Below, piece by piece: positions 9,210 through 59,459 of a stretch of 64,000 bases of DNA (position 1 is its first letter; each line of letters starts with the position of its first letter). The notes beneath the pieces were generated by a model. That model had not been told where the DNA came from and searched no databases. It saw only the letters and a list, made by a program, of their open reading frames with translations. The stretch lies in NCBI GenBank assembly GCA_963771355.1, contig CAVYTA010000008.1, forward strand, positions 89,560 through 153,559, in the 5' to 3' direction. The translations under genes were made by a program, and so were the position numbers. This DNA comes from an uncultured Candidatus Rokubacteria bacterium (GTDB taxonomy: Bacteria; Methylomirabilota; Methylomirabilia; Rokubacteriales; CSP1-6).

Positions 9210-10784
9210 TCGGCTGGCGCTCCTTGGCGCGGCCCGGGCTGGCCAGGCCGCGCACGTTCCAGATTCGCACCGGTCGGGCCAGACCCTTCAGGGCGAGCGG
9301 GCCGACGTCTTCCGCGTCGATCAGATCCTCCACGACCCCCGCGACCTTGGCCGAGATGAGGATTTGCCCGGCGCCGGCCTCGCCGCAGAGCCGCGCGGCC
9401 AGGTTGGTGACGCTGCCGATGGCGCCGTAGTCCCAGCGCCCCTCGAAGCCGATGGCGCCGATGGTGGCGTAGCCCTGGGAGACCCCCACGCCGAGCCCGA
9501 GGTCCCAGCCGCGCTTGCGCCAGCCCGCGCTGAGGCCGGCCACGACGTCGCGCATGGCCACCGCCATGCGGATCGCGCGCTGGGCCGGATCGGGAACCAC
9601 CACGGGGTCGTTGAAGAAGACCATCATGCCGTCCCCGGTGAAGCGCTCGAGGGTGCCCTCGTGGGCGAGGACGAGCCGGCCCATCTCCGCGTGGTACTCG
9701 CGGAGCAGCTCCATGATCTCCTCGGGCTCGGCCGTCTCCGCGAACGCGGTGAAGCCCCGGAGGTCCAGGAACACCACCGTGACTTCGCGGCGGTGGGTCT
9801 TGAGCGGGTCGTCGGCGCCGCCGGCCACGATGAGCTCGGCGAGCTGGGGGGAGAAGAAGCGCTTGAGCCGCCCCAGGCGCTCGAGCTGTCCGACCTGCTC
9901 GGCCACGCGCTGCTCCAGCGTCTGGTTCATTTCCGCGAGCGCGCGGCGATGGCGCTGCTCCTCGTCGTGGAGCCGTTTCTTCTCCAGGCATGCGCCTACC
10001 CGCGCCTGCAGGAGCACGGGGTCGAAGGGCTTGCCGAGGTAATCGTCGGCGCCGAGCTGGATGCATCGCACCACGCTGTCCATCTCGTCCAGCGCGGAGA
10101 TCATGAGCACGGGGACGTCGCGCCGCGCGGGATCGCCCTTGATCCGCTGGAGCACGGCATAGCCGTCCAGGTCCGGCATCATGACGTCGAGGAGGACGAG
10201 GTCGACGGGCGTCCGTGCGAGCACGTCGAGACCCGATTGCCCCCCCGCGGCGGTGAGCACCTCGTGGCCCTGACGGCGGAGGCGCCGGGCCAGCATGTCG
10301 CGGTTCTCCTCGCTGTCGTCCACCACCAGGATGACGCTGCGGCTCGACGGCGGCGCGGGCGCGGCCTCGGCCTCCGCGCTCGCCGTCCGGCCCGCGGGCG
10401 CCACGCCGCCGTGGCCGGAGCAGCTCGTGGAGGCGCTCGCCGGCCGCGCGGATTCGATCGAGGTCGGGCACCAGCGCGTCCGCGCCGGCCTCGGCGGCCT
10501 GCCGGAGGAGCGCGGCACGCCTCGGCGCGGACGCGCTCGAGGGGCGGGATGAGCGACCCGAGCGCGGCCGCGAGGTTGGGCGAGGCCGACGGCCCCTGCG
10601 CGAGCACCGTGTTCAGCAGGCCCAGCAGCTCGCGGGCATCCGCCCGGAGCGTCCCGAGCCCTGCCGCGAGGGTCGGACGGTCGCCCACCTCGAGCTCCTC
10701 GAGCAGCATCTCGGCGTAGCCGATGATGTGGTTCAGCGGCGTGCGCAGATCGTGGCGGAGCTGCGCGGCGGGCTCGATGCTCAC
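9202..10784 (-). CDS. HisKA-like + receiver + class III nucleotide cyclase fusion (frameshift near 10500)
   Basis: N-terminal LRHDLRTPLNHIIGYAEML H-box; REC (LVVDD, LLDVMMP); cyclase motifs VVFLDLRGFT, FTGDG, NLAARL. Confidence 0.85.
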
Positions 10785-11158
10785 GCGCCGCCCGCCGGCC
10801 CGAGCAGGGCCTCGATCTTCTGGAGCAGGCGGGGAAGATCAACGGGCTTGGTGTCGAAGTCGTCGCAGCCTGCTGCCAGGGCCTTCTCCCGGTCGCCGGC
10901 CATGGCGTGCGCGGTGAGGGCGATCACGGGAATCGTCCGCGTCTCCGGCATGGCCTTCACCTGGCGGGTGGCTTCCCACCCGTCCATACCCGGCAGGCTC
11001 ATGTCCATGAGGATGAGCGCCGGCGCCTCCGAGCGCGCCATCGCCAGGCCCTGCTCGCCGTCGACGGCGATGGCCACCTCGTAGCCGCGCTTGACGAGGC
11101 GACGGGAGAGCATGTCGCGGTTCATCTCGTTGTCCTCGACGAGCAGGATCTTGGCCAT
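10781..11158 (-). CDS. Single-domain response regulator (DivK-like)
   Basis: [33 protein letters not shown]. Confidence 0.92.
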   Translation of the reverse strand: MAKILLVEDNEMNRDMLSRRLVKRGYEVAIAVDGEQGLAMARSEAPALILMDMSLPGMDGWEATRQVKAMPETRTIPVIALTAHAMAGDREKALAAGCDDFDTKPVDLPRLLQKIEALLGPAGGA

Positions 11159-14100
11159 CAGGCTTTCGGCCTTCGGCGCGCCACGCTGGCCGCCACCAGG
11201 TCGCGCACTTCGGCCAGCAGCTCGTCGCGGCCGTGGGTGCCCTTCTGGAGAATCTTCTGCACGTAGCCGTTGAGCCGCTCCCGGTCGTCGTGGGACAGGT
11301 CCTTGGCGGTGACGACGATGATGGGGATGGCCCGCCAGAGCTCGTGGCGGCGGAACTCGGCGACGAACTCGAAGCCGTCCATCTCCGGCATCATGAGGTC
11401 GAGGAGGACGACGCTGGGGGAGACATCGCGCAGGCGGTCGAGCGCCATCCGGCCGTTGGCCGCCTCCACCACCTCGAAGCCCTCGCTCTCGAGCATGCGC
11501 CGGAGCAGTGCGCGGGCGCCGGAGTCGTCGTCCACCACCAGGACGGGCCGGTCGCGCCGGTGCTGCTTCAGCACCGTCACCAGCCGTTCGCGATCGATCG
11601 GCTTGGTGAGGTAGTCGGAGGCGCCGAGGGCATAGCCCAGGTTCCGGTCGTCGACGATGGTCAGCATGACCACCGGGATGCCGGCCACGTCCGCGTCGGC
11701 CTTGAGGGCGGAGAGAACGGCCCAGCCGTCCATCCCCGGCATCATGACGTCGAGGGTGATGGCGTCGGGCCGCAGCTCGCGGGCGCGGCGGAGCCCTTCC
11801 TCGCCGCCGGCGGCGGTGACGACGCGGAAGCCCTCCCGGGTTAGGAAACGCTGCATCAGGTCCCGCACCGCCGCCTCGTCGTCGATTACGAGCACGGTGC
11901 CGATGCCCGATGCCACGGGCTCGGCCGGCGCGGCGGGCGCGGCGGCTTCCCCGGCCGCCTCGGCGACCCGAGCGGGCAGCCGGATCGTGAAAGTGCTGCC
12001 GTGGTCCGCCTCGCTCTCGGCGGTGACGTCGCCACCCATCATCCGGCAGAGCCGCCGGCTGAGCGCCAGGCCGAGGCCGGTGCCACCATACCGGCGCGAG
12101 GTGGCGGCATCGGCCTGGGTGAATGCCTCGAACAGCCTGGCGAGCTGCTCGGGCGTCATGCCAATGCCGGTGTCGCTGACCGCGAAGGCGAACCACTCCT
12201 GACCGTCCACCAAGTCGCGGCTTACCGCCAGCGTCACCGCCCCACGCTCGGTGAACTTGCAGGCGTTGCTCAGCAGATTGAACAGGGCCTGGCGCACCTT
12301 GGTCAGATCCGCGTGCATCGAGCCGATCGCGTCGGGGCAGCGCACCTCCAGGCGATTGTCGTTCCTGGCCGCCAGGGGCTGGATCACCGCCGCGATGTCC
12401 TGGACCAGGCGCGCCACGTCGAAGCTCTCGAGGTAGAGCTCCATCTTGCCGGCCTCGATCTTGGAGAGATCGAGCACGGCGTTGATGAGCTCCAGCAGGT
12501 GCTTGCCGGCCGCGTTGATCTTCTTGAGGTCGTCGGTGAACTGCTCGGCCCCGAGATCGGCGGCGTCCTCCTGGAGCATCTCGCTGTAGCCGATGATGGC
12601 ATTGAGCGGCGTACGCAGTTCGTGGGACATGTTGGCGAGGAACTCGGACTTGTGACGGTCGGCGGCCTCGAGCTGGCGGCTCTTGTCCCCGATCTCCCGG
12701 AAGAGGCGCGCGTTCTGGATGGCCACCGCCGACTGGGCGGCAAATGTCCTGAGCAGATCGATGACCTCCGAGGAGAACTCCCCGGGTGTCTTCTTGGAGA
12801 CGGTGAGACCTCCGACCAGGTGATCCTCGCGCAACAGCGGAATGCCCAGGAGCGCCCGCGTTCCCGTCTGCAACAGGACATCTCGAAGGTGGCCGCTGTA
12901 CGCCCCCGCCTCGGCAATGTCGGCAACCTGGACCGGCTCGAGCGTCACGGCCATGCGCCCGGCGACACCCTCGCCCCGTCGGATCGGCGCCCGCCGGGCC
13001 ACGTCAACCACTTCCTCGGCGAGATTGTGGGTGGCACGGAACAGGAGTTCCTCAGCCCGCTCGTCGTACTCGTAGACCGTGCACGAGTCGGTGCCGGCGA
13101 GCTGGTTGGCGCGGGAGACGATCGTGCTGAGCACGGTCTCGAGGTCGAGCGTCGAGCCGAGAGCCTGGCTGACCTCGCCCAGCGCCTTGAGCTCCTGGAC
13201 CGACCGGGTGAGCTGGGCCGTGCGGGCTTGCAGCGCGTCGAGCAGCCGCGCGTTCTCGATGGCGATGGCCGCCTGGTCGGCGAAGGTTTCCATCAAGGCG
13301 ATCTGATTGTCCATGAATGGCCGGACCTCGTGCCTGTGGATCACGATGACCCCCAACAGCTCGTCCGCCCTGAGCATGGGGATCACCAGCACGGTCCGGT
13401 AAGGAGCAACCTGCTGCCCAGCGTAGGTGTACTCGGGATCGCTCCGGATATCGTGGATGTGGATGGTGCGCCGCTCAAGGGCCGCACGCCCGACGCCGCT
13501 CCCGCGTCCGGGCGCGATGGGATTCCGCTCGGTGAATGCTCTCAGCTCCGGGGAGACGTTGTGAGTGGCCACGACGCGCAGAACCTGACCGTCGAAGCGG
13601 AAGATCAATGCGCGTTCGGCCTCGCACAGCCTGATCGCGTTCTCGGCCAGCGTCTCGAAGACCGGCTGGAGATCGAAGGTGGACCGGCCGATCACCTTGA
13701 GCAGCTCGCTGGTCGCCGTCTGCTGCTCGAGCGCGACCCGCAGCTCGCCGTTTCGCTCCTCCAGTTCGGTGAACAGGCGGACGTTCTCGACGGCGATGAC
13801 CGCCTGATCGGCAAAGGTCTGGAGGAGAGCAATCTGATTGTCGGAGAACGCCCGTGGCGTTTCCCATATGTGGACGTTTATTGTGCCGATGGGGGACCCG
13901 TCACGAAGCATCGGCACCGCCAGCACGCTGGCAAGGCCGGCACCTGCCACCGCACGCACGCTGTAGTCTCGATCCCCTCGGACGTCTGGAATATGAACCG
14001 GTCGGCCTGTCAGGATGGTCCGCCCGGACGCGCTTCCCATGTGCGGCGCCATCGGGAATACGCTTCGCAGGGCCTCGGCCTGCTCAGGGGCCGTATTGTC

Positions 14101-17100
14101 GAGAGATTGCAGGTGCATTAATTCGCCGTCATACCTCACGACCTGGGCGCTACCGGCCTCACACAGCCTGCGGGCATTGTGGGCGATCGTGTCGAAGACC
14201 GGCTGGACGTTGGTCGGCGAGCTCGAGATCACGCGGAGAATCTCGCTCGTCGCCGTCTGCTGCTCGAGCGCCTCGGTGAGGTCTGCGTTCTTGGTCTGCA
14301 GCTCGGTGAGCAGCCGCGCATTCTCGATGGCGATGGCGGCCTGGTCGGCGAAGGTCTCCATCAGGGCGATGTGGCCGTCTGTGAACCGCCGGACCTCGTG
14401 CCGGTAGATGACGATCACTCCGAGCAGCTCCTCGGCTCTCAACATGGGGATCGCGAGCAACGTTCTGACAGGGTCCGCCACGTGCACCGCGTAGGTGACT
14501 TCCGAGTCGGCCAGCACGTCATGGATGTGGACTGTGCGCTTCTCGAGAGCAGCGCGAGCCGTGCCGCTATGGCGGCCGGGAGCAATAGGATTGCGCTCGA
14601 TGAATGATTGCAACTCGGGGGAGACATTATAGAAGGCCGCGGCTCGCAGGAGCTGAGCGTCGAAACGGAAGATGACCGCCCGCTCGGCTTCGCACAGCCG
14701 GACCGCGTTCTCGGCCAGCGTCTCGAAGACCGGCTGGAGCTCGAACGTGGACCGCCCGATCACCTTGAGCAGCTCGCTGGTCGCCGTCTGTTGCTCGAGG
14801 GACACGCGGAGCTCGCTGTTGCGCCCCTCCAGCTCGGTGAACAGGCGCACGTTCTCGATGGCGATCACCGCCTGGTCGGCGAAGGTCTGCAGCAGCCCGA
14901 TCTGCTTGTCCGAGAATGGCGCCACGTGATCCCGGGCAACGAGGATAGTCCCGATGGGCACGTTGTCGCGAAGCATCGGGACTGCGAGAGCGCTTCGATA
15001 GCCGGTCGTTGTTGCGATCGGAAGCGTATATTCGGGATCCTCAAGCACGTCTGGCACCTGGACGACGTTACGGGTCAAGATCGCCCGTCCGCTCACGCTC
15101 CCCCGGCTCGGAGGCAGCGGGTATGTCCGCCCCAGCGCATCCAATCGCTCCGCGCTGAGGTTGTGGTGCGCCACGAGATGCATGAGCCGCCCGTCAAACT
15201 GAATGACGAGACCATTGACTGCCCCCGAGAGTTGCGTGGCGCTCGCGGCGATCGCTTCGAAGGTCGGGCGGACGTCGGTCGGGGAGCTGCTGATGACGCG
15301 CAGGATCTCGCTGGTCGCCGTCTGCTGCTCGAGCGCCTCGGTGAGGTCGGCGTTCTTGGCCTGGAGCTCGGTGAGCAGCCGCGCGTTCTCGATGGCGATG
15401 GCCGCCTGGTCGGCGAAGGTCTCCATCAGGGCGATCTGACCGTCCGTGAAGGGCTGGACCTCGAGTCTGTAGATCGTGATCACGCCCAGGAGCTCATCCG
15501 CTCGGAGCATTGGTATCGCAAGCATGGTTCGAGTGGGATCAATCGTCTGCGCCCCGTAAGTGTATTCGGGATCGGCCTGGATGTCGTGAACGTGCGTGGT
15601 GCGCCGATCGAGTGCAGCGCGACCCGTGGTGCTTCCGCGTCCGAGGGGAATAGGATTCCTCTCGATGAAGCTCTTGAGATTGGGGGACACGTTGTGGGCG
15701 GTCACGACTCGCAAGACCTGACCGTCGAAGCGGAAGACCAAAGCTCGCTCGGCAGCGCACAACCGGACCGCGTTCTCGGCCAGGGTTTCGAAGACGGGCT
15801 GGAGATCGAAGGTGGAGCGGCCGATCACCTTGAGGAGCTCGCTCGTCGCGGTCTGCTGCTCGAGGGCGACGCGCAGCTCGGAGTTCCGCGCCTCCAGCTC
15901 GGTGAACAGGCGGACGTTCTCGATGGCGATGACGGCCTGGTCGGCGAAGGTCTTCAGCATCTCGATGTGGGCGGTAGCGAACCGTCCGGGTGCGCTGCGC
16001 TGGACAACGATGGTGCCGATCGGACTGCTATCCGCCCGGAGCATCGGCACGGCAAGCAGGCTTCGCCCGGCTGCCAGGTTGACCTGATATTCCGAGTCCT
16101 CCATCACGTCCGGGATTTCGGCGATGGCACACGTGAGAATCGCCCGCCCCGAGGCTTGTGAGTGGCTCGGACGCATCGGGTACGCTCGCCGCAGACCTTC
16201 CAGCACGTCTGGCGTCACGTCGTGTGCCACGACGTGAAGCTGCTCGCCGTCGAACCGATGCAAGACGCCGAAGCTCGCCCCGCACAGCTGCACCGCGTTC
16301 CGGACGATGGCATCGAACACCGGCTGGACGTCGGTCGGGGAACTGCTGATGACCCGCAGGATCTCGCTCGTCGCTGTCTGCTGCTCCAGGGCCTCGGTGA
16401 GGTCGGCGTTCTTGGCCTGCAGCTCGGTGAGCAGCCGCGCGTTCTCGATGGCGATGGCGGCCTGGTCGGCGAAGGTCTCTAGCAGGGCGATCTGGCTGTC
16501 GGTGAACGGTCGGACCTCGTGTCTGTAGATCAAGATCACGCCCAGCAACTCGTCCGCCCTGAGCATGGGGACCGTGAGTATGGTTCGAAACGGGTCCACC
16601 TGCCGCGAGCCGTAGGTGTACTCGGGGTCGGTCTGGACATCATGGATGTGGACGGTGCGCCGCTCGAGGGCGGCGCGCGCCGCGGCGCTGCTCCTTCCGG
16701 GCGCAATGGGATTCTGCTCGATGAAGGCTCTGATCTCGGCGGAAGCATTGTGAGTGGCTACAACGCGCAGGAGCTGACCGTCGAAGCGGAAGATGAACGA
16801 TCGTTCTGAGTCGCACAGTCTCACCGCGTTCTCGGCCAGCGTCTCGAAGACCGGCTGGAGGTCGAAGGTGGAGCGCCCGATCACCTTGAGCAGCTCGCTG
16901 GTGGCCGTCTGCTGTTCGAGAGCGACGCGGAGCTCACTGTTGCGTGCCCCGAGCTCGGTGAAGAGGCGCACGTTCTCAATGGCGATGACCGCCTGATCGG
17001 CAAACGTCTTGAGCAGCTCGATCTGCTTGTCGCTGAAGGGGCGGACCTCCGTCCTGCGGATCAGAAGGCTGCCGATCGCCACCCCTTCGCGCACCAGAGG

Positions 17101-18634
17101 CGTCGCGAGTGTCGTGTGATGTCCTGCGGCTCTGGCCAGCGCCCGGCCTTCCGCGAACTCGGCTTCATCCGCCTCAGCGAGATTGTGAACATGGATCGGC
17201 TGCCGGTCGATGATCGCCCGGCCCATGACCGAGCCGCGGGTGAGCGGGAACGTCCGGCCCAAGACGCTGGCGATCGGTCCGTAATGGGCTGCGATCCGAC
17301 CCGTCTGGCCTTCCACGAGCACGAGCACCGCATCGAAAGCCGCACATACTCGGGCTGCGTTCTCGGCGACGGTATCCAGCACGGGCTGAAGGTCAGTCGG
17401 TGAGCCCGCGATCACGCGCAGGATCTCGCTCGTCGCCGTCTGCTGCTCCAGGGCCTCGGTGAGGTCGGCGTTCTTGGCTTGGAGCTCGGTGAGCAGCCGC
17501 GCGTTCTCGATGGCGATGGCCGCCTGGTCGGCGAAGGTCTCCATGAGAGCGATCTGACCGTCGGTGAACGGCCGCACCACATGCCGGTAGATGAAGATCA
17601 CTCCGAGCAGCTCATCCGCGCGCATTATGGGGATCCCGAGCGCGGTGCGAATGGGGATTGTGTCGGCCTGTGCGAGCCTGATAGGTGTGCTCTGGGTCGG
17701 CCTGGACATCCGGAATGTGGATCGTGCGTCGCTCGAGGGCGGCGCGCCCGGTGGCGCTGTTGCGCCCGGGGAAATGGGATTGCCCTCGAGGAACGCCCGG
17801 CGTCCGGCGGAGACATTGTGCGTGGCCACGAGACGGAGCAGCTGACCGTCGAAGCGGAAGATGGCGGCGCGTTCGGCCTCGCACAGCCTGACCGCATTCT
17901 CGGCCAGCGTGTCGAAGACCGGCTGGAGGTCGAAGGTGGACCGCCCGATCACCTTGAGCAGCTCGCTGGTCGCCGTCTGCTGCTCGAGGGCGACGCGGAG
18001 CTCGCGGTTGCGTGCGTCCAGCTCGGTGAACAGGCGCACGTTCTCGATAGCGATCACGGCCTGGTCGGCGAAGGTCTGGAGCAGCGCAACCTGCCGGTCG
18101 GTGAAGGGCAGGGCCTCGGTGCGGCGGAGCTGGATCACGCCGATGGCAGCGCCATTCTTCAGCAAGGGAACACTCAGCAGCGTCCGGTGGCCGAACCGTT
18201 GCGCGTAGCGACTCCCCTCCGGGAACTCACCGATCTCGGCCTGCACGTCGGCAATGTGGATGGTCCGCGCCTCCAGCACACTCCGACCGGCGATGGTGCC
18301 TCGGGCGAGGGCCAGAGTGAACTCGCCGACCGGGTCTACGGCGATCGGCCCATGATGGGCGACGAGGAGGAGTCGGTCGCCTCGCGAGCCGGAAGATGGT
18401 GGAATCCTGGGCCTCGCAGAGGCGGCCCGCGCTGGCCGTCACGGCGTCGAGTACCGGCTGGATGTCAATCGGCGAGCTGCTGATGATCCGGAGGATCTCG
18501 GCGGTGGCCGTCTGCTGCTCGAGGGCCTCGGCAAGCTTCGCCGCGAGCCCGTCGCTTCTCGCGCGCTCCTGCTCGAGCGCCTTGCGCAGCGCCTCGACTT
18601 CGAGGGCGAGATCAACCTTGGGCGCCGGCGCCAT
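11158..18634 (-). CDS. Giant hybrid histidine kinase: 11 GAF + HisKA + HATPase + 2 REC (about 2490 aa; frameshifts near 18280-18390 and a compensating pair near 17680-17770)
   Basis: Ten EQQTAT(S/A)E...FADQAxIAxEN units plus a final [34 protein letters not shown]; two receiver domains. Confidence 0.9.
13240..18530 (-). repeat. Intragenic tandem repeat: five copies of a ~1.06-kb two-GAF unit
   Basis: Near-identical nucleotide linkers (e.g. gtcgccgtctgctgctcgag, ttctcgatggcgatggccgcctggtcggcgaag) recur every ~530 bp, alternating two types. Confidence 0.85.
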
Positions 18635-45049: not shown

Positions 45050-45358
45050 ATGATCACCCTCTGCATTCGCTATACGCTCAACGCCAGCAAGCGGGCCGAC
45101 TTCGAAGCCTACGCCCGGAGCCTGGCCACGCCCATCGAGCGCTGTGGCGGCAAACTGATCGGCTACTTCTCGCCGACCAAGCTCGCCGGCCCGACCAATA
45201 TCGCGCTGGCGCTCATCGATTTCGCCAGCCTCGCGGAATACGAGCGGTATCGGGAGGCCCTGGCGATCGATCCGGACCATGTCGAGGCGCTGCGCCGTGC
45301 CGAGCAGTCGGGCTGGCTTCTCGTCGAGGACCGCTCGTTCATGCAGCGGGTGTCATAG
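45050..45358 (+). CDS. NIPSNAP-family protein
   Basis: MITLCIRYTL...GGKLIGYF...FASLAEYERYR; divergent from the ArsR gene. Confidence 0.85.
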   Translation: MITLCIRYTLNASKRADFEAYARSLATPIERCGGKLIGYFSPTKLAGPTNIALALIDFASLAEYERYREALAIDPDHVEALRRAEQSGWLLVEDRSFMQRVS

Positions 45359-45379
45359 CCCCGTCACGCCCGCGGGGGG

Positions 45380-47003
45380 TCACTCGGCGAGCCAGACGCC
45401 GTCGAGCTGCTGGTTCAGGAAATGCGACGGCGTGATCGTCCACCCTCGGACCTTGGCGTTCAGGGGGACGATCCGGTGCCACTGGAGCGTGTAGATGTAG
45501 TGCGCCTCCTCGTCGAGCAGGCGCTTCTCGAAGGCGCGGAGGTGCCGCTTGCGCTCCTCGGGATCCACCGCGCGCGCCTGCTTGATGAAGAGGTCGTCCA
45601 GGACGGGATCCTTGTAGCGCGCGTAGTTGTTGTCGGAGACACCCACCGACTGGAACTTCGAGATGTCGACGTCGGGCTCGACGACGAAGCTGCACTGGGC
45701 ATCGCTGGCCACGTCGAAGTCGCCTTTCCGGAGGACGGACACCATCATCGACGCCTCCACGACCTCTTGCTTGACGTTGAGCCCGATGTGCCGCCACTGA
45801 TCGATGGCCCAGATGCCCACGGGCTCGTACGGCTGGGGGATCCCGCGGTTCTTGAAGGTGAAGGCAAAGCCGTCGGGGACGCCCGGCCTCCCGGAGCAGG
45901 CGCCGCGCCTCGGCCCGGCTCGCGGCGACGTCGCGGCCGTAGCCGGCGAGCTTCTCGAGCTCGGCCGGTGGGGTGGCCCACGGGGTGCCCGGCACCTGGA
46001 TCCCCCCGACCTCCTTGACGACGGTGATCCGCGACAGGCTGCGCGAGGCGCCGTGGCGGTCCAGCGCCAGGGTCAGCGCGCGGCGGACGCGCTTGTCGTC
46101 GAAGGGCTTCCGCTCGTGATTGAACGCCACCAGTGACACACAGTTCCACGGGCTTTCCTGCACCGTGATCTTCGCGCCGAGGGCCTGGACGAGGTTGTCC
46201 CGGTCCACCGGGCTGAAGCCGCGGAACTGCGCGTGGGCGCGCTCGCCGCGGATGGCCGCCACCTGGGCGGACGACGACGAGATGAAGAGCGCCCGGTACC
46301 CGTCCAGATACGGCTTGCCCTTGTCCCAGTAGTCCGGGTTCTTCTTCGCGACCCAGTGCGAGCCCTTGACGTGCTCGACGAACTTGAAGGGGCCGGTGCC
46401 CATCACGTTGGTCTCGTACCAGCGCACGTCCCGGGCGAGGATGTCCGCCTTGAAGATCCAGCTGAACGGCGAGGCGAGGTTCACGAGGAAGGAGGCCTCG
46501 GGCCACTTGAGCCGGAAGCGCACCGTCTGCGGATCGGGCGCCTCGACGGCCTCGACCGCCTGGTAGGTGCCCTTGCGGAACGAGATCACCGCGCCCGTCG
46601 GGAAGATGATCTTGTCGTAGGTGGCCTTGACGTCGCGCGACGTCATCGGGCTCCCGTCGTGGAAGCGGACGCCCTGGCGCAGCTTGAGGGTGTAGGTCAA
46701 CCCGTCCGGAGAGATCGTCCAGGAGTCGGCCAGGTCCGGAACGGGACGCGTCCCCGTCCGGTCGGTGGGATCGATGCGCAGCAGCGTGTTGTAGTGCGGC
46801 GCCAGCGGATGGACGGTGCCGAACGTCCCCTCGCGGTGGCCGTCATAGGACGGGGGCTCGGAGGGCACCATGATGACCAGCTCGCCTCCGTAGCGGGGGG
46901 CGTCCTGGGCGCGGGCGGAGCCGAGCCCGAGCACCACGAGCGTGGCGGTGAGCAGCATCCAGAGCATCGCGAGAACACCGGCGGGCGGCTTGACGGGTCG
47001 CAT
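45380..47003 (-). CDS. ABC substrate-binding protein, family 5 (frameshift near 45890)
   Basis: PDLADSW, MGTGPF, DKRVRRAL; C-terminus in ORF 45380-45820. Confidence 0.88.
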
Positions 47004-50011: not shown

Positions 50012-50858
50012 GTGACCCGCGGCGCCCGCATCCTGCTGCTGGGGCCGTACGTCCTGCTGCTGCGTGGCGTTCTTCGTGGCCCCGCTCCTGCTGATGCTCG
50101 CCATCAGCTTCTCGCGGCAGTCGTTCGGGCAGCTCGAGTGGTCCTTCACCCCGCAGCACTACATCCACTTCTTCTCCGACGCGTACTATCTGGGCGTGCT
50201 CGCGGACACCCTCTGGCTGGGGGTGCTCACCACCGCGGTTTCCCTGCTCCTCGGCTACCCGCTGGCCTACCATCTGGCCCTGACCCGCTCGCGCTGGAAG
50301 CCGCTGCTGATCGTCTTCATCCTGTCGCCGCTGCTGGTCGGCATCGTCATCCGCTGCTACGGCTGGATGATCCTGCTCGCCGACCGCGGCCTCATCAACG
50401 AGTCCCTGGTGCGGGCGGGATGGATCACCAAGCCGCTGCCGCTCATGTACAACAAGTTCGGGGTGACGGTCGCGCTCGTGCACGTCTTCCTGCCCTTCAT
50501 GGTGCTGTCGCTCACCGGGGTGCTCAAGCGCATCGAGCCTCAGCTGATCGAGGCCTCGCAGACGCTGGGGGCGTCCCCACGCCGGGCCTTCTTCGAGATC
50601 ACGCTGCCGCTCTCGCTGCCCGGCATCCTCGCGGGCTCGCTGCTCGTCTTCTCCCTGGCCATCAGCTCCTTCGTGGTGCCGATCCTGGTGGGCGGGTTCA
50701 AGGTGCACGTGCTGCCGATGGTGGTGTACGAGCAGGTGCTCTCGGTGTTCGACTGGCCCTTCGGCGCCGCCAACGCCTTCGTGCTGCTCGTGATCTCGGT
50801 GGCGCTGATCGGGGTCTACATCAAGGTGACCGAGCGCGCGCTGCGCGGCATCGTATGA
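50012..50858 (+). CDS. PotB-like permease (5' frameshift)
   Basis: LLLGYPLAY, EASQTLGA, LPLSLPG. Confidence 0.88.
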
Positions 50859-51629
50859 TCCTCCGAACCGTGGTGGGCCTCGTCTACGCCTTCCTGCTGC
50901 TGCCGATGGTCATCGTGGTGCTGGCCGCGTTCAACGCGGGCAACTACTTCACCTTTCCCCCGCAGGGCTTCTCGCTCAAGTGGTTCGCCAACTTCTTCCA
51001 GCGCCGGGAGTTCATGCAGGCCCTCTGGCTCTCCGCCGAGCTGGCGGTCTGGACCGCGCTCGCCTCCACCGTGATCGGGACCGCCGCCGCCATTCCGCTG
51101 GTGCGGGGCCGCTTCCCGCGGCCGCGATCTCCTCAACGCGTTCGTCACCTCCCCGCTGCTGCTGCCGCAGATCCTCACCGGAGTGGCGCTGCTCCAGTTC
51201 TACACGCTCTTCAAGATGCAGGCCTCCTACGCGGCGCTGCTCATCGGCCACATCGTGGTGACCACGCCCTACGTGATCCGCACCGTCACCGCCACCCTCA
51301 CCCACTTCGACATGGCCCTCGAGGAGGCGGCCCAGAGCCTGGGCGCCCATCCGGTGCGCGCGTTCTTCGAGATCACGCTGGGGGTGATCAAGCCGGGCGT
51401 GGTGGCGGGCGCGATCTTCGCCCTGGCGATCTCCTTCGACAACTTCACGCTCTCGCTCTTCTTGACCAGCTCGAAGCTGACCCCGCTCCCGATCGAGCTC
51501 TTCGCCTATCTCAAATACTCGTTCGACCCCACCGCGGCCGCGGTATCCGCCTTCGCCATCGGGGTGGCCCTGGTGCTCGTCCTGGGCATCGCGCGCTTCA
51601 TGGGGCTCGAGGAGTTCACGGGGTTCTGA
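50855..51629 (+). CDS. PotC-like permease (frameshift near 51120)
   Basis: FPPQGFSLKWF, EEAAQSLGA, ISFDNF. Confidence 0.86.
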
Positions 51630-51656
51630 TGCGGGTTCTACGATGAGAGCGGGCCG

Positions 51657-52730
51657 ATGAGACCGGTAGCGGTGGACGAGATCGAGAGCCTGGCCATCGG
51701 GGCCTGGATCCTGGGCACCGGCGGCGGCGGGAGCCCCTACCTCGCGCTGCTCAACATGCGCCAGCTCTACCGCCAGGGGATCTCGTGCCGCCTGATGGAC
51801 GCGGCCGAGCTGGCGGACGACGACCTGGTGGCGGTGGTCTCCAACATGGGCGCGCCGCTGGTGGGCCAGGAGCGGCTCACCGACCCCAAGACGATGGCGC
51901 TGGCCGTCACCATGATGGAGGAGTATCTCGGCCGGAAGTTCCGCGCGGTGATGTCGCTCGAGATCGGCGGGGGCAACTCCATCCAGCCCTTCATGGCGGC
52001 GGCGGTGCTGGACCTGCCGGTGATCGACGGCGACTGCATGGGGCGCGCGTTTCCCGAGGCCCAGATGACCAGCTTCGCCATCCACGACCTCCGCATGTAC
52101 CCCCTGACCCTCGCCGACGTGCGCGATAACGCCGTCGTGGTGGCGCGCGCGGCGAGCTGGAAGTGGATGGAGCGGATCAGCCGCAAGGCCTGCGTGGAGG
52201 TGGGCTCCATCGCCTCCACCTGCAAGGCCCCCCGCACCGGCAAGGAGATCAAGGACTGCGCGATCCTCGGCTCCACCACCAAGGCCATCGGGATCGGCCG
52301 GGCGGTGCAGGCCGCGCGCCGGGCCCACCGCGATCCCATCGACGCGGTGCTCGAGGTGACGGGCGGGGTCAAGATCTTCAGCGGCAAGATCCACGACATC
52401 GCGCGCCGGACCACCGAGGGCTTCCTCCGCGGCACCGCGACCATCGAAGGCCTCGACGACCGCCGGGGCCACACCTTCTCGCTCGCCTTCCAGAACGAGT
52501 TCGCGGTGGGCTGGCTCGACGGCGAGCCGCGGGTCATGACGCCCGACCTGATCTGCGTGCTCGACACCGTCTCCGGCGATGCGATCGGCACCGAGACGCT
52601 GCGCTACGGCCAGCGGGTGACCGTCATCGCGCTGCCCGCGCCCCCGATCCTCCTCACCCCGAAGGGGATCGAGCACGTGGGCCCGCGCGCCTTCGGCTAC
52701 GACCTCGACTTCCGCTCGGTGTTCGCGTGA
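51657..52730 (+). CDS. DUF917-family protein
   Basis: LGTGGGG, EIGGGN, DGDCMGRAFPE, FQNE, PDLI, TETLRYGQRV. Confidence 0.9.
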   Translation: MRPVAVDEIESLAIGAWILGTGGGGSPYLALLNMRQLYRQGISCRLMDAAELADDDLVAVVSNMGAPLVGQERLTDPKTMALAVTMMEEYLGRKFRAVMSLEIGGGNSIQPFMAAAVLDLPVIDGDCMGRAFPEAQMTSFAIHDLRMYPLTLADVRDNAVVVARAASWKWMERISRKACVEVGSIASTCKAPRTGKEIKDCAILGSTTKAIGIGRAVQAARRAHRDPIDAVLEVTGGVKIFSGKIHDIARRTTEGFLRGTATIEGLDDRRGHTFSLAFQNEFAVGWLDGEPRVMTPDLICVLDTVSGDAIGTETLRYGQRVTVIALPAPPILLTPKGIEHVGPRAFGYDLDFRSVFA

Positions 52731-54288
52731 GACGGCGCATCGGCATCGACGTGGGCGGCACCAACACCGACGCCGTGCTCCTCGAGGAGGACGCGGTGGC
52801 GGCGGCGGTGAAGACGCCGACCACCCCCGATGTGACCACCGGCATCACCCGCGCCCTCGCCGAGCTGGTGGAGCGGGCGCCCGGCGCGCGGCGAAGCCGA
52901 GGCGGCGATGATCGGCACCACCCACTTCACCAACGCGGTGGTCCAGCGGCGCGACCTCGGCGCGCGTGGCCGCGGTGCGCGTCGGCCTGCCCTCCGGCGC
53001 CTCGCTCCCGCCCTTCGTGGACTGGCCCGAGGACCTGGCGGAGCTGGTGCGCGCCGAGGTGGTGATGCTGGAGGGCGGCCACGAGTTCGACGGCCGCCCG
53101 CTCGTCCCCTTCGACACGCGCGGCATGCGCGCGGCGGCCCGGCGGATCCGCGAGGCCGGGATCCGCTCGGTCGCCATCGCCGCCGTCTTCTCCCCGCTGA
53201 ACGCGTCGGGCGAAGAGGAGGCGGCGGCGATCTTGCGCGAGGAGTGCCCCGACGTCGCGATCACCCTCTCGCACCGGCTCGGCCGCATCGGGCTGCTCGA
53301 GCGCGAGAACGCGGCCCTGCTCAACGCCTGCCTCATCGAGCTGGCCCGGAAGACGACGCGCGCCTTCACCCAGGCCCTGCGCGCGAGCGGCATCGCGGCG
53401 CCGCTCTACCTCACCCAGAACGACGGCACCGTCATGCTGGCCGAGGTGGCGGAGGCGTACCCGGTGTACTCCTTCGCGTCGGGGCCGACCAACTCGATGC
53501 GCGGCGCCGCGTTCCTCTCCAAGCGCGACGAGGCGCTGGTGGTGGACGTGGGCGGCACCACCACGGACATCGGCAGCCTGCGCCATGGCTTTCCCCGCGA
53601 GGCCAACAACGTGGTCGAGATCGGCGGGGTCCGCACCCTGTTCCGGATGCCCGATCTCCTCTCCATGGGACTGGGCGGCGGGACGAAGGTGCTGGCGCCC
53701 GGCGTCGGAACCGCGCCCGTGCTCACCATCGGGCCGGCCAGCGTGGGCTATCGGCTCACCGAGCAGGCGCTGGTGTTCGGCGGCGACGTCCTCACCGTGA
53801 CGGACGTCGCCGTTGCCGCCGGGCTCATCGACCTGGGCGACCGGGCCCGCGTGGCGTCGCTGCCCGCCGCCCTGGTGAAGGAGGCCCTCGCGCGCATCCG
53901 CACCATGATCGAGGAGGGCGTGGACCGCATGAAGACCGACGCGGGCGAGGCGCCGCTGATCGCGGTGGGCGGCGGGTCGTTCCTGGTGCCGCCGCGCCTG
54001 GCCGGCGTCTCCGAGGTCCTGAACGTGCCGCACCAGGCGGTGGCCAACGCGGTGGGCGCCGCGATCGCCCAGGTGAGCGGCGAGGTGGACCAGATCTTCC
54101 AGGACCTCTCGCGGGACGAGGCGATCGCGCGGGCCCGCCGGGCGGCGGAGGACAAGGCGGTGGCGGCCGGCGCCGACCGGGCCACCATCAACGTGGTGGA
54201 GGTGGAGGACCTGCCCCTGGCCTACTTGCCCGGCAACTCCCTCCGCACCCGGGTGCGCGTGGTCGGGGAGATCGCCCGGCACGCGTAG
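52727..54288 (+). CDS. Hydantoinase/oxoprolinase A-like ATP-binding protein (5' frameshifts)
   Basis: IGIDVGGTNTD, IGTTHFTNA, SGPTNSMRGA, DVGGTTTD, VANAVGAA. Confidence 0.88.
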
Positions 54289-54396
54289 CGGCCGATGCGG
54301 CGCGATCTCCTATGGGCGTAGCCCGGGGGACGGTAAGTATGGGTTCGAATCCGGGTCGCCATGCGACGCCGAGCTGACGCTAGGGACCCACGCGCG

Positions 54397-55161
54397 ATGA
54401 GAAGACCGCTCTCCCTGATGATGGCGGCCCCGATCGTGATGGCGCTCACCACGGCGGCCCTCGGCGCCTCCTATGACGAGCAGCGGTCGGCCGCGGTCGC
54501 GCCCTGCGAAGCCATCGATCCCCGTGACTACCAGTCCGGCCTGCTCTTCAACCCGGATGGCTACCGCTCGTACTTCGTTCGCTCGGAGTGCTTCCAGCGG
54601 GTTGCGCGGGAGTTTCGCGACGCCTCACTCTGCGCGCAGGTGCGGCGGCGGTTCTCGCTGTTCAGCTCGAGCTGGGGCTATTCCCGCGCGCAGTGTCTGA
54701 AGGAGGTGCAGGCGGGAGTGGCGGCCGATCGCGAGGCGCTCGAGGAGCGGCGGCGGCAGTACCTGGGCGGCCAGCCCCTGCGGCTGGTCGACTTCCGGAT
54801 CGAGCGCAGCGGCAACGGCCGTGACTTCGACATCGTGCCCGCGTTCACGGGTGGGCATGCCGGCTCCTATACGCTGCGCTTCGATGTCCTGGCGCCCGAC
54901 GGCACGCCGCGGACCGCGCCGCTCCACTCGGCCGGCATGAATCTCGACGCCGGCAGCAACGTCCGGCTCTACGTCCGCTACGAGGACATCCGGGCGCGCT
55001 GGCCCGAGTTCTCCTACGGCATGCGCCACACGGTCCGGGCCACGCTCACGCTCGACGTGGGGTCGGGCAGCATGGGCGCCCGGTGGAGCGACACCTTCGT
55101 CGAGGGGGTGTTTCCGCGAGCGGAGCGGTCCCAGGCCCTGGAGAAGGACATCGGATTCTGA
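54397..55161 (+). CDS. Exported hypothetical protein with four Cys
   Basis: Signal-peptide-like N-terminus ending TAALGA; GC-typical codon use. Confidence 0.7.
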   Translation: MRRPLSLMMAAPIVMALTTAALGASYDEQRSAAVAPCEAIDPRDYQSGLLFNPDGYRSYFVRSECFQRVAREFRDASLCAQVRRRFSLFSSSWGYSRAQCLKEVQAGVAADREALEERRRQYLGGQPLRLVDFRIERSGNGRDFDIVPAFTGGHAGSYTLRFDVLAPDGTPRTAPLHSAGMNLDAGSNVRLYVRYEDIRARWPEFSYGMRHTVRATLTLDVGSGSMGARWSDTFVEGVFPRAERSQALEKDIGF

Positions 55162-55248: not shown

Positions 55249-56502
55249 TCAGCTCGGGTCGGCGGCGCGCAACCGCTTCGCTAGCGCCTGCAGGAGCTTC
55301 CATCCGATGGCGCCGTTCCTTTCGATCAGCGGGCGGAACTCCCAGAACGTGAGCCCGTAGCAAACCAGGTCGGTCGCAGCGGTCACCGTGGCCGAGCGGG
55401 GGCCGCCGTCGATCAGGGCGATCTCGCCGAAGTGGTCGCCCGGGCCGAGGGTGGCGAGGTCGACGCCTTTGCTCGAGACCGTGGCCTCCCCGGAGTCGAT
55501 GAGGAAGAAGGCGGCGCCCCCGGAGCCCTCCAGGATGACGGTCTCGCCCTTCGCGAAGCGGCGCTCCTTGAGCAGGCGGGCGATTTGCTCGACCTGCCTC
55601 CGGTCCATATCGGCGAAGAGCTGGGCGCGCCGGAGGGAGGCCACGGGGTTGCGCGGGGGCGGGCCGGACGGTGGTGCCTCGCTGCGCGCCTTCCCGGTGG
55701 TGACGGCGCGGCACTGGAGGAGGTAGAGCGTCCCACCCTGGAACGCCCATTCGATGTCGCGCCGCGGGCCGTAGACCTTCTCGCACTGCAGGGCGAGCTC
55801 GCCCAAGGCCGCTAGCTCGGCGTCGTCGAGGCAGAGCTGGTTCACCTGCGCGGGTGCCACTTGCTGCTCGAAGGTGCCTCCGTTCGGGAGCGAGCGGATC
55901 GCGATGCGCTTGCGCCCGATCTTGCGCTCCAGCACTTGGCCGGAACGGTCGAGGCGGAAGTGGTCCGGGACGACGAGGCCGGCAACCACGGCTTCACCGA
56001 GGCCCCAACTCCCTTCGATCAGGCGCTCATCGGCGCCGGTGACCGGGTGCTCGGTGAACATGACCCCGGCGACGGTGGGGTTGAGGAGCGTCTGGACGAC
56101 GACGCCGACGCTCGGCCGGGTGAACAGGCCGACACGCTGGCGATAGGTGATGGCCGAGTCCGAGTTCGCAGACCACCAGACTTCGCGGACGGCGCCGGGG
56201 ACATCGGCCGCCGAATGGACGTTGAGCACGGTGAGATGCTGGCCGGCGAAGCTCGCCGCCGCGCCGTCTTCGTCGACGGCGGACGACCGGACGGCGAACG
56301 GGGGCGGCAAGGCGGCGATGGCCTTCGCCACCCTTTCAATGGCCCTGTCCTCCCCCGAGGCGACGGCCTCGACCAAGTCGCCCGAGAGCGCCACGCCGGG
56401 AGGGACCGTGAGGCCCTGGCGCGCGGCGTCGCCGAGCCCCACGGCCTTCGACCCATAGAGCGATGTCTCGCGCGCCTTCGTGAAGGGGACGACCTTTTTC
56501 AC
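55249..56502 (-). CDS. PEP/pyruvate-binding (dikinase ATP-grasp) domain fused to a cNMP-binding domain
   Basis: GSKA, AVRSSAVDED, SFAGQH, WGLGEAVVAG, DIEWA, LQCRAVT, then a Pro-rich linker and HFGEIALIDGGPRSATVTA. Confidence 0.88.
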   Translation of the reverse strand: MKKVVPFTKARETSLYGSKAVGLGDAARQGLTVPPGVALSGDLVEAVASGEDRAIERVAKAIAALPPPFAVRSSAVDEDGAAASFAGQHLTVLNVHSAADVPGAVREVWWSANSDSAITYRQRVGLFTRPSVGVVVQTLLNPTVAGVMFTEHPVTGADERLIEGSWGLGEAVVAGLVVPDHFRLDRSGQVLERKIGRKRIAIRSLPNGGTFEQQVAPAQVNQLCLDDAELAALGELALQCEKVYGPRRDIEWAFQGGTLYLLQCRAVTTGKARSEAPPSGPPPRNPVASLRRAQLFADMDRRQVEQIARLLKERRFAKGETVILEGSGGAAFFLIDSGEATVSSKGVDLATLGPGDHFGEIALIDGGPRSATVTAATDLVCYGLTFWEFRPLIERNGAIGWKLLQALAKRLRAADPS

Positions 56503-58139
56503 CCGAGCACCGTAACTTCGCCGGCATCCCCGTCGACGCGAACAAGGACGCCGTCGGCGATGCGTTCGGTCGCCTCGCGGGTCCCGACGACGCCGGGGAT
56601 CCCGTACTCTCGCGAGACGATCGCCGCATGCGAAAGGAGGCCGCCGTTGTCGGTGACGATCCCGCCAAGGAGCGGGAGGAGGATGTTGAAGGCCTCGGTC
56701 GTCGACTCGGTGACGAGCACGTCGCCCTTGGCGATCCGGCCGAACTCGGAGGGGCCGGAGACGCGGCGCGCGGGCCCTTCGTAAACGCCCTTGCTCGCCG
56801 CAAGCCCGTAGAGGACTTTTTCTTCGTTCTGCGCCTGGGAGCTGCCGAAGAGGTGGCCCAAGGCGAGGAAGGTCGCGCGCATGAGACGGCCGACCGATGG
56901 GGGCAGGGCCGCGAGGTCAGACGGAGGCGGTGCGGGCGGGCCAAGGAAGGGCGGGACGTCTTTGGCGGTGTGGGTCGCGCGGTATTCGGCGCGCTTGGCG
57001 AGCTCGTCCGCGGACGGGCCACCGGCGCCGGCGACCAGCGCGCACATCTCGTCGAGGCTGGCGTCCAGCATCTGCTGGGGGGTGGCGATGCGGCCGCGAC
57101 TGGCGACCCGCCGGCCAGCCGCAAGGACGGCGCGCCGCATGAGGCCCGAGGCCCAGATGTCGCTGTAGACACCACGTTCGTCGCGGAGGCGATAGGTAAG
57201 GCGGGCCTCGCCGAGCAGTTCGTCGAACTCGACCTGGTGCGCCGCGGGGACTTGGGCGCGGACTTCGGCAATGCGGGCATCGACGTCCGAGGCGGCTTGG
57301 GCTTCTCCGGAAACGGCGATGCGGATGGCCCTAAGGAGTGCGTCCGGCAATTCGAGCACCGAGGGCTCGGCGATATCGAAGCCGTCGATGAGGCGGTTGC
57401 CGACCAAGTCGAGGTAGCCGGAGACCGCCGCGCCTGCTTCGCCCGCGAGGGAACGCAGGCTCGCGAGCACCTGGGCGGGGTCGCCGTCGGATGCGAGGAC
57501 CTCGCGGGCAGCGGGGTCCTGGGCGAACGCCCCTTTCAGGCGCTCCATCTCGTCGGAGCCACCCGCGGACACCACTGCCGAACCGCGCATCAGGCCCAGC
57601 AGCTCGGACGGCGGCAGGCCCGTCCAGTCCCCAGCGTGTACGAGGAAGTCCCCGGTTGGGAGCACGGCACCGGCGGTGAAACGCATGTGCTGGGCGATCA
57701 TGGCCGAATGGTGGTCGCGGCAGCGCGTCAGATAGGCGACCAGCTCCCCGTCGGAGAGGGCGTCCGGATTGACGGCCTGCAGCTCCCGGTGCGTGGCAAT
57801 GGAAGATGGTTTGCGATTCTCGTCCCAGTCGTGAAGCTGCTCCCGCCAGAGCTTCTGCACGAAGACTTGTTCAGCGCGCTGATAGCGCTCGGGGATTTCG
57901 GCATCTGGAGCCGGCAGCACCTGGTTGTAGCCGAAGCCGTTCACGTAGCCGATCTGGAGGCCGTCGATGAGCATCCCGTAGAAACGGGCGAAGTCGTTGG
58001 TGCCCCTCTTGAAGGAGGGGGAATGCGTCTCCTGGAAGTAGCGCGTCATCGGGCGCGGGAAGTGCACGGCGTCTTGCTCCCACGATCCTGGCCCTGGCGG
58101 CTCAAAACGGAGTTCGGTCGAGGTGTCTGACGTGGTCAT
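56499..58139 (-). CDS. Substrate-binding + phospho-His swivel domain protein (C-terminal half of RPH/PEP-synthase-like dikinase)
   Basis: C-terminal GPARRV, GDVLVT, GGLLSHAAIVSREYGIPGVVG, VRVDGDAGEV after a long helical domain; GTGA overlap with the next gene. Confidence 0.88.
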   Translation of the reverse strand: MTTSDTSTELRFEPPGPGSWEQDAVHFPRPMTRYFQETHSPSFKRGTNDFARFYGMLIDGLQIGYVNGFGYNQVLPAPDAEIPERYQRAEQVFVQKLWREQLHDWDENRKPSSIATHRELQAVNPDALSDGELVAYLTRCRDHHSAMIAQHMRFTAGAVLPTGDFLVHAGDWTGLPPSELLGLMRGSAVVSAGGSDEMERLKGAFAQDPAAREVLASDGDPAQVLASLRSLAGEAGAAVSGYLDLVGNRLIDGFDIAEPSVLELPDALLRAIRIAVSGEAQAASDVDARIAEVRAQVPAAHQVEFDELLGEARLTYRLRDERGVYSDIWASGLMRRAVLAAGRRVASRGRIATPQQMLDASLDEMCALVAGAGGPSADELAKRAEYRATHTAKDVPPFLGPPAPPPSDLAALPPSVGRLMRATFLALGHLFGSSQAQNEEKVLYGLAASKGVYEGPARRVSGPSEFGRIAKGDVLVTESTTEAFNILLPLLGGIVTDNGGLLSHAAIVSREYGIPGVVGTREATERIADGVLVRVDGDAGEVTVLG

Positions 58140-58394
58140 GGCGGTCCCTCTCTCTGGGACGGCCCGCGGATTTCGCGGCGCCGCTGGCGACCATTGTCCC
58201 GTTCGGAACGCAGGGCAAGGTGCCCGTTCAGGCCCCCCCTCTTTAGCAGGGGCGCGGAAGTGCGACAATCGGACCAAAGGCCTAGTGCCGTTGCACGAAA
58301 GGAGGTTCGCGCAGCGAAGCTCCATCCACTCCATCGTGTGCTCCGATGGCGATTCTCCGGGTCCGGGGTTCCCTGCCCTTCCATTCATCCCCAA

Positions 58395-58520: not shown

Positions 58521-58928
58521 CAAGCGCCTCGCAAAACAGACTGCAGTAGACTGGCGCACGCGGGATCCGACGAGGTGGGGCGCCAAGCGTTGGATGGGGG
58601 TGCGGCGATGAACCATGGTCCGACTGTACGCCGCTGCAGGCATGCACTTGCCGGTCCAACTGCTTCAACCGCGCGATCGCCCTCGAACGTCGCCTTGCCG
58701 GGTCTCCGACCTCGGCGATTGGTGGTGAGGAGGTCAGGCTAAGCGCAGCCTACGACTACCTCCGGGAGGTCTACCCGTCCGGTACGACGGCCGAGTTCAT
58801 GTCACGCGGCCCGATGGAAGACATATTCTTGGTCCTGGGTGAAGGAACGCGCGGCGTCGTGTTTGGTCTCCGAGCAACTGAAACTGGTCACGCGTTCAAT
58901 GCTATGGTGTCGAACGGACGGGTGGTCT

Positions 58929-59459
58929 TCATGACGGGGTCGTCGACCGCCACCACCTGATCGAAGCGGTCGAATGGCACCTCGCTCTCGGGTCCCGTTC
59001 GCGGCATGTGGGGATTGATCTCGGCGATGACGTGGCGGGCCGCGAGCGCAGCCGCTCGGGTGATGTCCACCGAAACGCCGAGGCTGCACGCACCGCGCTC
59101 ATCCGGCGGGCTGACCTGCACGAGGGCGACGTCGAGAGCGAGCTGGCCGCTCCGGAGGAGCCGCGGCACCTCGGCCAGCGACATGGGAATGTAGTCGACG
59201 CCGCCCGCCGATGTCCCGGCCGACGTAAAAAGCCCGCCGCCGGAATGCGCTCCACGGCCGCCCGTCGCGCTGCCCGGTGGCGCCGTCGGTCAGGAAATGG
59301 ACGAGCTGAACCCCGGCCGGCGGCGGGGCACACGCTTCGAGCGCGCCCAGCAGCGTCCGCGGCGTCGCGCACGCGCTCCCCACGAAGACGCGATCGCCCG
59401 CTCCGCCGGCACTGCGCGCTCGCGCCAATCGGATCCCACCGCTGCCGTCACGCAGTCAT
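58929..59459 (-). pseudogene. Acetyl-CoA hydrolase/transferase N-terminal fragment
   Basis: GDRVFVGSACATP, DVALVQVSPPDERGACSLGVSVD, IAEINPHMPRT; frameshifted and truncated after VVAVDDPV. Confidence 0.8.

Follow-up and report, generated by a model that had tools for sequence, protein, structure and literature searches.

Within a 64,000-nt stretch of DNA from an uncultured Candidatus Rokubacteria bacterium (hereafter the window), two overlapping genes, A and B, encode the two halves of a putative dikinase related to rifampin phosphotransferase (RPH) and to the two-component enzyme HpeHI, and the ATP-grasp subunit, B, bears, at its C terminus, a domain of the cyclic-nucleotide-binding (cNMP) type. 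On balance, we favor the view that this split enzyme phosphorylates a small hydroxylated molecule and is switched by cyclic AMP (cAMP) through the cNMP domain. The parts of this reading differ in strength. Dikinase chemistry, in which ATP would be converted to AMP and inorganic phosphate by way of a phosphohistidine, is predicted with high confidence from the residues retained, and binding of a 3′,5′-cyclic nucleotide by the cNMP domain with only a little less; a change in enzyme activity upon such binding is probable, and an external small molecule as the substrate slightly less so. Residue numbers refer throughout to the window copies of A and B, and positions are collected in Table 1.

Gene A joins an RPH-like acceptor domain to a phosphohistidine swivel

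An earlier note on this DNA had described a gene pair coupled by a GTGA overlap, with a large helical domain and an intact phosphohistidine domain in A, and with a compact ATP-grasp domain, a Pro-rich linker and a cNMP domain with an intact phosphate-binding cassette in B. Both open reading frames (ORFs) and their overlap were confirmed, and the profile scan that the note had proposed returned everything sought, namely PEP-utilizers in A and PPDK_N and cNMP_binding in B. The PEP-utilizers match covers residues 470-540 of A (E 2e-20) with the motif LSHAAIVSRE and His504, and the T/SxxGGxxxH motif is present as TDNGGLLSH, ending at the same histidine. The AlphaFold2 model of A, with a predicted local distance difference test (pLDDT) of 79.7 and a predicted template modeling score (pTM) of 0.82, found a full-length match only in RPH when searched with Foldseek (E 1.6e-15 to 1.1e-11; next match 1.5e-3). 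Comparison of the model with RPH residues 307-867 gave Z scores of 14.7-17.8, the next match reaching 7.1, and domain and fold thus both upheld the description of A.

The motif R319-D-E-R322 (RDER) of the acceptor domain is invariant in 47/47 aligned rows and retained in 127-138 of the 149 rows of the wider family, R319 and D320 each being kept in 138. In a weak hidden Markov model (HMM) alignment to 5FBS (12.9 bits), RPH Arg666-Glu667-x-x-Lys670 falls opposite R319-D-E-R-G-V of A, with Arg and Glu kept. The residue two positions before the phosphohistidine, within a motif described in the available text of PMC12167813, is Leu in A and in 132/149 rows, not the regulatory Thr of phosphoenolpyruvate (PEP) synthase and pyruvate phosphate dikinase (PPDK). 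Although those enzymes also combine an ATP-grasp domain with a His swivel, no PEP/pyruvate barrel family was matched in the pair and RPH was the only full-length fold, in agreement with the earlier view that the pair is neither PEP synthase nor PPDK. ATP-grasp and His domains are also encoded by a separate gene of the host, 982 aa long.

That RPH is the only full-length structural match of A would suit a split, rifamycin-inactivating RPH, but we regard this identity as very improbable. The sequence identity between A and RPH is 14-18%, and with the NCBIfam rph model the pair attains 87 and 171 bits where 999 are required, no NCBIfam family reaching its cut-off. Furthermore, RPH is defined as a single chain, its Lys670 has no equivalent in A (Val), and the available text of PMC4844700 reports distant RPH clades that give no rifampin (RIF) resistance.

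Gene B couples a compact ATP-grasp domain to an intact cNMP domain

In B, the scan placed PPDK_N at residues 52-276 (E 3e-61) and cNMP_binding at 313-396 (E 4e-17; FGEIALIDGGPRSATV), and alignments likewise bore out the predicted layout. By motif and alignment offset, K19, R72 and T91 of B are the equivalents of RPH Lys22, Arg117 and Thr136, which the available text of PMC4844700 describes as needed for the first half-reaction. The ATP-grasp domain is compact, with residue 68 of B aligning to residue 143 of HpeI and residue 64 to residue 109 of RPH. The model of B matched the RPH ATP-grasp domain and HpeI and, separately, the nucleotide domains of CRP, PKA and PKG, while the linker has pLDDT values below 50 at residues 270-283. 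The canonical features of a cNMP domain (β-roll, Gly-Glu/Arg cassette, hinge and C-helix) are all found in B, and F358, G359, E360, A362, L363 and R369 are invariant in 76/76 full-length fused B proteins.

Domains of this type that select cyclic GMP (cGMP) carry, as a rule, Thr directly after the cassette Arg. Because Ser takes this place in 60 of the 76 fused B proteins, and Met does so in 116 of 120 domains encoded on their own, cAMP appears the likelier ligand. Class III cyclase domains were detected in 33/33 carrier genomes tested, with 44 matches in the host, so that these hosts are able to produce the ligand. Cyclase domains of mixed architecture and position lie in the flanks of 8 of the 80 loci analyzed, and no dedicated cyclase adjoining the pair was found in those flanks. 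In the window, a receiver-adenylate-cyclase lies in one run (9205-18279, minus strand) with a response regulator and a multi-GAF hybrid histidine kinase of 2373 aa.

The lack of a dedicated cyclase argues against a Pycsar-like anti-phage effector, in which a cyclic pyrimidine or another alarmone would trigger futile hydrolysis of ATP to AMP, even though the cNMP domain matches PADLOC PycTIR (E 4e-14). The pair is mobile and a few of its neighbors are toxin-antitoxin genes or transposases, as such an effector would lead one to expect; however, the PycTIR match is generic and weaker than those to PKA and PKG domains (E 1e-25 to 1e-33), no defense genes were linked to the pair in the flanks of the 80 loci, and the acceptor site, needless for a futile ATPase, is strongly conserved. 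We give this explanation very little credence.

The fusion is kept across loci, and where unfused the domain remains beside the pair

A scan of GTDB yielded 232 relatives of A, and the pair and domain counts that follow rest on the best 80 of these. B follows A directly in 78/80 loci, the other two stopping at a sequence edge, and the overlap of 4 nt (-4) seen in the window recurs in 55/74 measurable loci. In all 73 loci with room for it, the cNMP domain follows the ATP-grasp domain; among them are five in which B has a broken frame or an insertion and two in which the domain is a separate ORF. Moreover, both domains are present in each of the best 120 homologs of B (85-95% identity). An assembly chimera was rejected on these counts. 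Three single-chain A-B-cNMP matches (P0123, P0127 and P0128) were taken for frameshifted gene calls and left uncounted. Among the 76 fused B proteins, mean conservation was 0.87 in the cNMP domain, 0.90 in the ATP-grasp core and 0.72 in the linker, and the median ratio of nonsynonymous to synonymous substitution rates (dN/dS) to the window copy was 0.20, 0.14 and 0.36, respectively. The survey of pair and fusion for which the earlier note had called thus found the fusion kept and under purifying selection.

In three loci (L067, L069 and L154), B stops after the ATP-grasp domain and a separate cNMP ORF starting with MRG begins 30-140 nt further on; L067 and L069 are 96% identical in DNA and count as one case, and the context of this free-subunit form is known from three genomes. 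Among the best 120 matches to such stand-alone ORFs (75-98% identity), 80 begin with MRGAP, 119 have the cassette and 79 are 136 or 149 aa long. In trees built with FastTree, in which support values after re-rooting may sit on neighboring nodes, the split form is nested inside the fused clade in two and is sister to it in one. The persistence of the domain beside the pair without a tether favors a binding partner over a passenger.

These data bear on the possibility that the pair is an ordinary two-component dikinase whose cNMP domain binds nucleotide without gating the enzyme, as a dimerization or scaffold module, a cAMP buffer or a passenger. Sister lineages work with a 270-aa ATP-grasp protein alone, the linker is flexible, no domain contact was modeled with confidence and the domain can exist as a separate protein, all of which would be compatible with this. 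Nevertheless, a domain that is kept in 73/73 loci, evolves under purifying selection and stays behind the pair when unfused makes the absence of gating improbable.

The pair moves alone between soil bacteria

Comparison of loci across hosts showed that the A+B pair moves alone between unrelated soil bacteria. In nine loci under five phylum-level labels (Rokubacteria, NC10, Verrucomicrobiia, Acidobacteriota, and delta- and Alphaproteobacteria), DNA identity to the window reaches 93-97% over A and B only; four non-Rokubacteria loci among them lie on contigs whose lengths range from 257 kb to 1.14 Mb. Similarity begins at most 290 nt from A and stops at most ~20 nt from B wherever the contig reaches that far. 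The closest copies are in Rokubacteria records, and the pair occurs in cultured Variovorax, Mesorhizobium and Taklimakanibacter.

An ortholog was present in 1/40 relatives of the host, and 2/40 family genomes matched both genes, whereas family members have the flanking ABC/hydantoinase and sugar-ABC operons independently of the pair. The pair had been described as part of an accessory block; it is indeed accessory, but the block dissolves into two genes only, with the flanking operons separate. No conserved third gene was found among the 80 loci, whose 132 nearest flanking ORFs belong to mixed families, and all-against-all clustering of flanking genes gave only small groups and no shared pathway gene. 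Mobile-element ends or attC-like sites were likewise not found, and flank similarity decays at varying points.

Relatives without the cNMP domain neighbor TetR and transporter genes

Relatives of the pair at 31-50% identity lack the cNMP domain, and the cNMP-bearing sequences form a single clade in both trees of A. One TetR family lies right beside A in 18/40 distinct cNMP-less loci, and one EmrB/QacA-type major facilitator superfamily (MFS) transporter lies beside the genes in 7/40; the same TetR or MFS was found beside the cNMP-clade pair in 0/80 loci with at least 1 kb upstream. The assignment of these neighbors to the two families was confirmed. Fusions of the compact ATP-grasp domain to an MFS transporter make up 13 of the best 120 long B homologs (clusters P0131, P0132, P0137-P0139, P0141, P0142, P0144-P0147, P0149 and P0150), with the MFS portion scoring 250-324 bits on the profile used for the neighboring MFS genes. 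Such tethering of a kinase subunit to a transporter suggests that phosphorylation and transport are coupled.

One same-order genome (G040; L081:8732-11241) carries the cNMP pair alongside an MFS-accompanied sister pair lacking the cNMP domain, which speaks against redundancy of the two in that genome. Four further loci, L133, L134, L136 and L137 (G236, G312, G382 and G232), contain A-type genes of 41-45% identity, three of which are followed directly by MFS. No ATP-grasp partner for these genes was found in 4/5 genomes searched, which are perhaps incomplete; they are possibly ATP-independent phosphotransferases or phosphatases.

The wider family comprises 2024 clusters at E <= 1e-30, other His-swivel proteins included, and its best 150 clusters (50% identity) all have E < 1e-120. 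Among single-chain RDER-family members (P0487, P0444, P0498/P0521 and P0408) are clusters that hold amoebozoan records (Luapelamoeba, Dracoamoeba), for which contamination is possible, and P0487 additionally contains an EF-hand and two dual-specificity phosphatase domains. In P0501 and P0495, an RDER-family dikinase is fused at its C-terminal end to a radical-SAM domain, a hint of biosynthetic function in this branch.

Such forms keep an endogenous substrate in play, and with it the explanation that the same chemistry serves a metabolite or macromolecule of the cell as a cAMP-responsive metabolic or signaling switch instead of detoxification. A cNMP clade that lacks transporter, regulator and pathway gene, yet is useful in many phyla, would also fit this explanation. 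On the other hand, the pair is patchily distributed among host relatives and family genomes, in keeping with an accessory trait, TetR and efflux-type MFS genes are found in the nearest sister lineages, and the characterized relatives in the literature covered act on small phenols or rifamycins. An endogenous switch is therefore unlikely in our estimation.

Proposed mechanism and its weighing

By homology with RPH and HpeHI, B would bind and present ATP, His504 would take the β-phosphate with release of AMP and inorganic phosphate, and the swivel would carry the phosphate from His504 to a hydroxyl at the RDER site of A. Binding of cAMP would alter the docking of the cNMP domain and turn the first half-reaction on or off, by analogy with the mycobacterial enzyme Pat (compared below). 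Since HpeH and HpeI, as described in the available text of PMC12167813, make only transient contact and the rate varies with the amount of HpeI, control could plausibly be exerted at the ATP-grasp subunit. The cNMP domain would likely work by docking on either B or A, not via the tether, since one sub-lineage keeps it as a separate gene.

Gene context suggests that the ancestral unit of TetR, A, B and efflux-type MFS may have been a ligand-induced detoxification or trapping system. In the simplest history, the cNMP clade would have lost TetR and MFS and gained the cNMP domain, and control would have moved from transcription to an allosteric cAMP switch, limiting costly use of ATP. Our best reading is hence an inducible detoxification or trapping kinase with TetR swapped for a cAMP switch. 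A bolder proposal, which we put forward only tentatively and hold to be rather doubtful, is that the pair represents the first second-messenger-gated His-swivel dikinase: TetR-induced, efflux-coupled detoxification kinases would have exchanged their transcriptional sensor for a cAMP module, fused or free, leaving two self-sufficient genes that recently swept through soil phyla against a common compound.

Several observations weigh against a cAMP-switched kinase of external molecules. The position of RPH Lys670 is occupied by Val within a motif alignment that is itself weak, and in the single-chain model of B (pTM 0.62) the placement of the cNMP domain is of low confidence. The presence of cyclases barely discriminates, as 50/61 controls (one an unpublished genome, G899) have them too; near the pair there are 9 cyclase domains in 651 kb, some 4-5 independent cases, where 1-5 are expected. 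Of the counted neighbors, 9 served to build the TetR profile and 7 the MFS profile, and many of loci L084-L102 are close kin whose TetR/MFS counts are not independent events; for these reasons the contrast between the clades is a pattern, not a statistic. Finally, the TetR/MFS hint comes from relatives at 31-50% identity, and the cNMP clade may have switched substrate on losing these genes.

If the preferred reading, a small-molecule kinase switched by cAMP, is true, direct reading of a small enzyme by cAMP would constitute a new cAMP output and would bring allosteric control to a class for which searches of the open literature found none. Soil bacteria like the host have dozens of nucleotide cyclases and few known outputs beyond CRP-type regulators. 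That two bare genes spread recently across phyla points to a selective agent in soil that is both strong and widespread. Moreover, the pair is both compact and soluble, occurs in cultured hosts and opens a large uncharacterized family.

Leader and genomic surroundings

No conserved RNA motif was found in the leader of A, which had no Rfam match at E<=1, and neither a sigma-70 promoter site nor a terminator was found for the pair. Contigs from soil RNA libraries hold many variants over just A and B; these contigs were chosen with the window stretch, possibly derive from DNA and give no evidence of expression. Upstream of A, positions 58888-59428 of the window contain acetyl-CoA hydrolase/transferase fragments, apparently of a broken gene. 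A convergent 266-aa ORF at 54361-55161 (plus strand) has a signal-peptide-like start and several Cys, with no Pfam or NCBIfam match. At 45339-47003 and 50012-54288, several transporter and hydantoinase-like genes seem to be divided between frames, perhaps owing to long-read indels or decay.

Table 1 Features of the gene pair and their positions in the window
Feature	Position	Strand	Remarks
Gene A	58139-56499	minus	546 aa; ATG start; AG-rich ribosome-binding site (RBS) upstream
Gene B	56502-55249	minus	417 aa; GTG start
GTGA start/stop overlap of A and B	56499..56502	minus	4 nt; couples A and B
Leader with RBS, ~100 nt	58140..58240	minus	common only to the closest copies
RPH-type acceptor-binding domain (A, ~aa 9-430) and C-terminal phosphohistidine swivel (~436-546)	56499..58139	minus	Pfam and fold searches
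R319-D-E-R322 motif (A)	57174..57185	minus	aligned to the RPH Arg666-Glu667 catalytic site
His504, predicted phospho-carrier (A)	56628..56630	minus	kept in 149/149 rows
Compact ATP-grasp domain (B, aa 1-268)	55699..56502	minus	Pfam, PDB sequence and fold matches
Pro-rich linker (B, aa 269-287)	55642..55698	minus	low confidence; less conserved
CRP-type cyclic-nucleotide-binding domain with long C-helix (B, aa 288-412)	55267..55641	minus	W387, W401 and R412 conserved
Phosphate-binding cassette F358-G-E-I-A-L...R369-S-A-T-V373 (B)	55384..55431	minus	invariant core residues

Comparison with known systems

HpeHI of Rhodococcus, CreHI and PpsAB are two-component small-molecule dikinases that start phenol-catabolic pathways (available text of PMC12167813). 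They share with the window pair the division between two proteins, one with the acceptor and His-swivel parts and the other with the ATP-grasp domain, the RPH fold and a residue other than Thr two positions before the phosphohistidine. Two hallmarks of such enzymes, a separate ATP-grasp subunit of the RPH N-domain type and an acceptor/His-swivel subunit, were both found in the pair, and HpeI (PDB 9GOJ) is the best PDB sequence match of B (E 1e-38). Accordingly, the earlier assignment to a split RPH-type dikinase stands in fold and domains, whereas the rarity of the split that it implied does not, since these three systems had already been described. In contrast to them, the window pair has no conserved pathway gene, and B is shorter than HpeI by ~70 N-lobe residues and carries the cNMP domain. 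The phenol-kinase branch (HpeH/CreH/PpsA, ~45% mutual identity) was considered for the pair and rejected, given the absence of conserved aromatic-catabolism neighbors from the 132 nearest flanking ORFs and from the all-against-all clustering, and scores far below the NCBIfam cut-offs. Against the PRK08296 models, which presumably cover PpsA/HpeH-like proteins, A scores 110 bits over its C-terminal half only, with cut-offs of 578 or more.

RPH of Listeria (5FBU, 5HV1; available text of PMC4844700) resembles the pair in its three-domain fold, in the equivalents of K19/R72/T91 and His504 and in an Arg-Glu-like acceptor motif, and both are encoded by stand-alone, pathway-free genes. RPH is one chain without a sensor domain, whereas the window pair forms two chains in which RE-x-x-K is replaced by R-D-E-R-G.

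For the sensor, a precedent is provided by mycobacterial Pat (Rv0998/MSMEG_5458), in which, according to the available text of PMC8556138, a cAMP domain switches a bacterial enzyme. As in B, a CRP/PKA-type cAMP domain is fused to the enzyme; Pat, however, has an unrelated catalytic domain and an N-terminal sensor, whereas the sensor of B is C-terminal, and B matches the Pat model over the cNMP domain only, so that the analogy extends to regulation alone. As the earlier note had supposed, no characterized dikinase of this class bearing a cNMP domain was found among the papers listed by targeted searches of the open literature. The two-part architecture is already known, and the cyclic-nucleotide sensor on it appears to be the new element.

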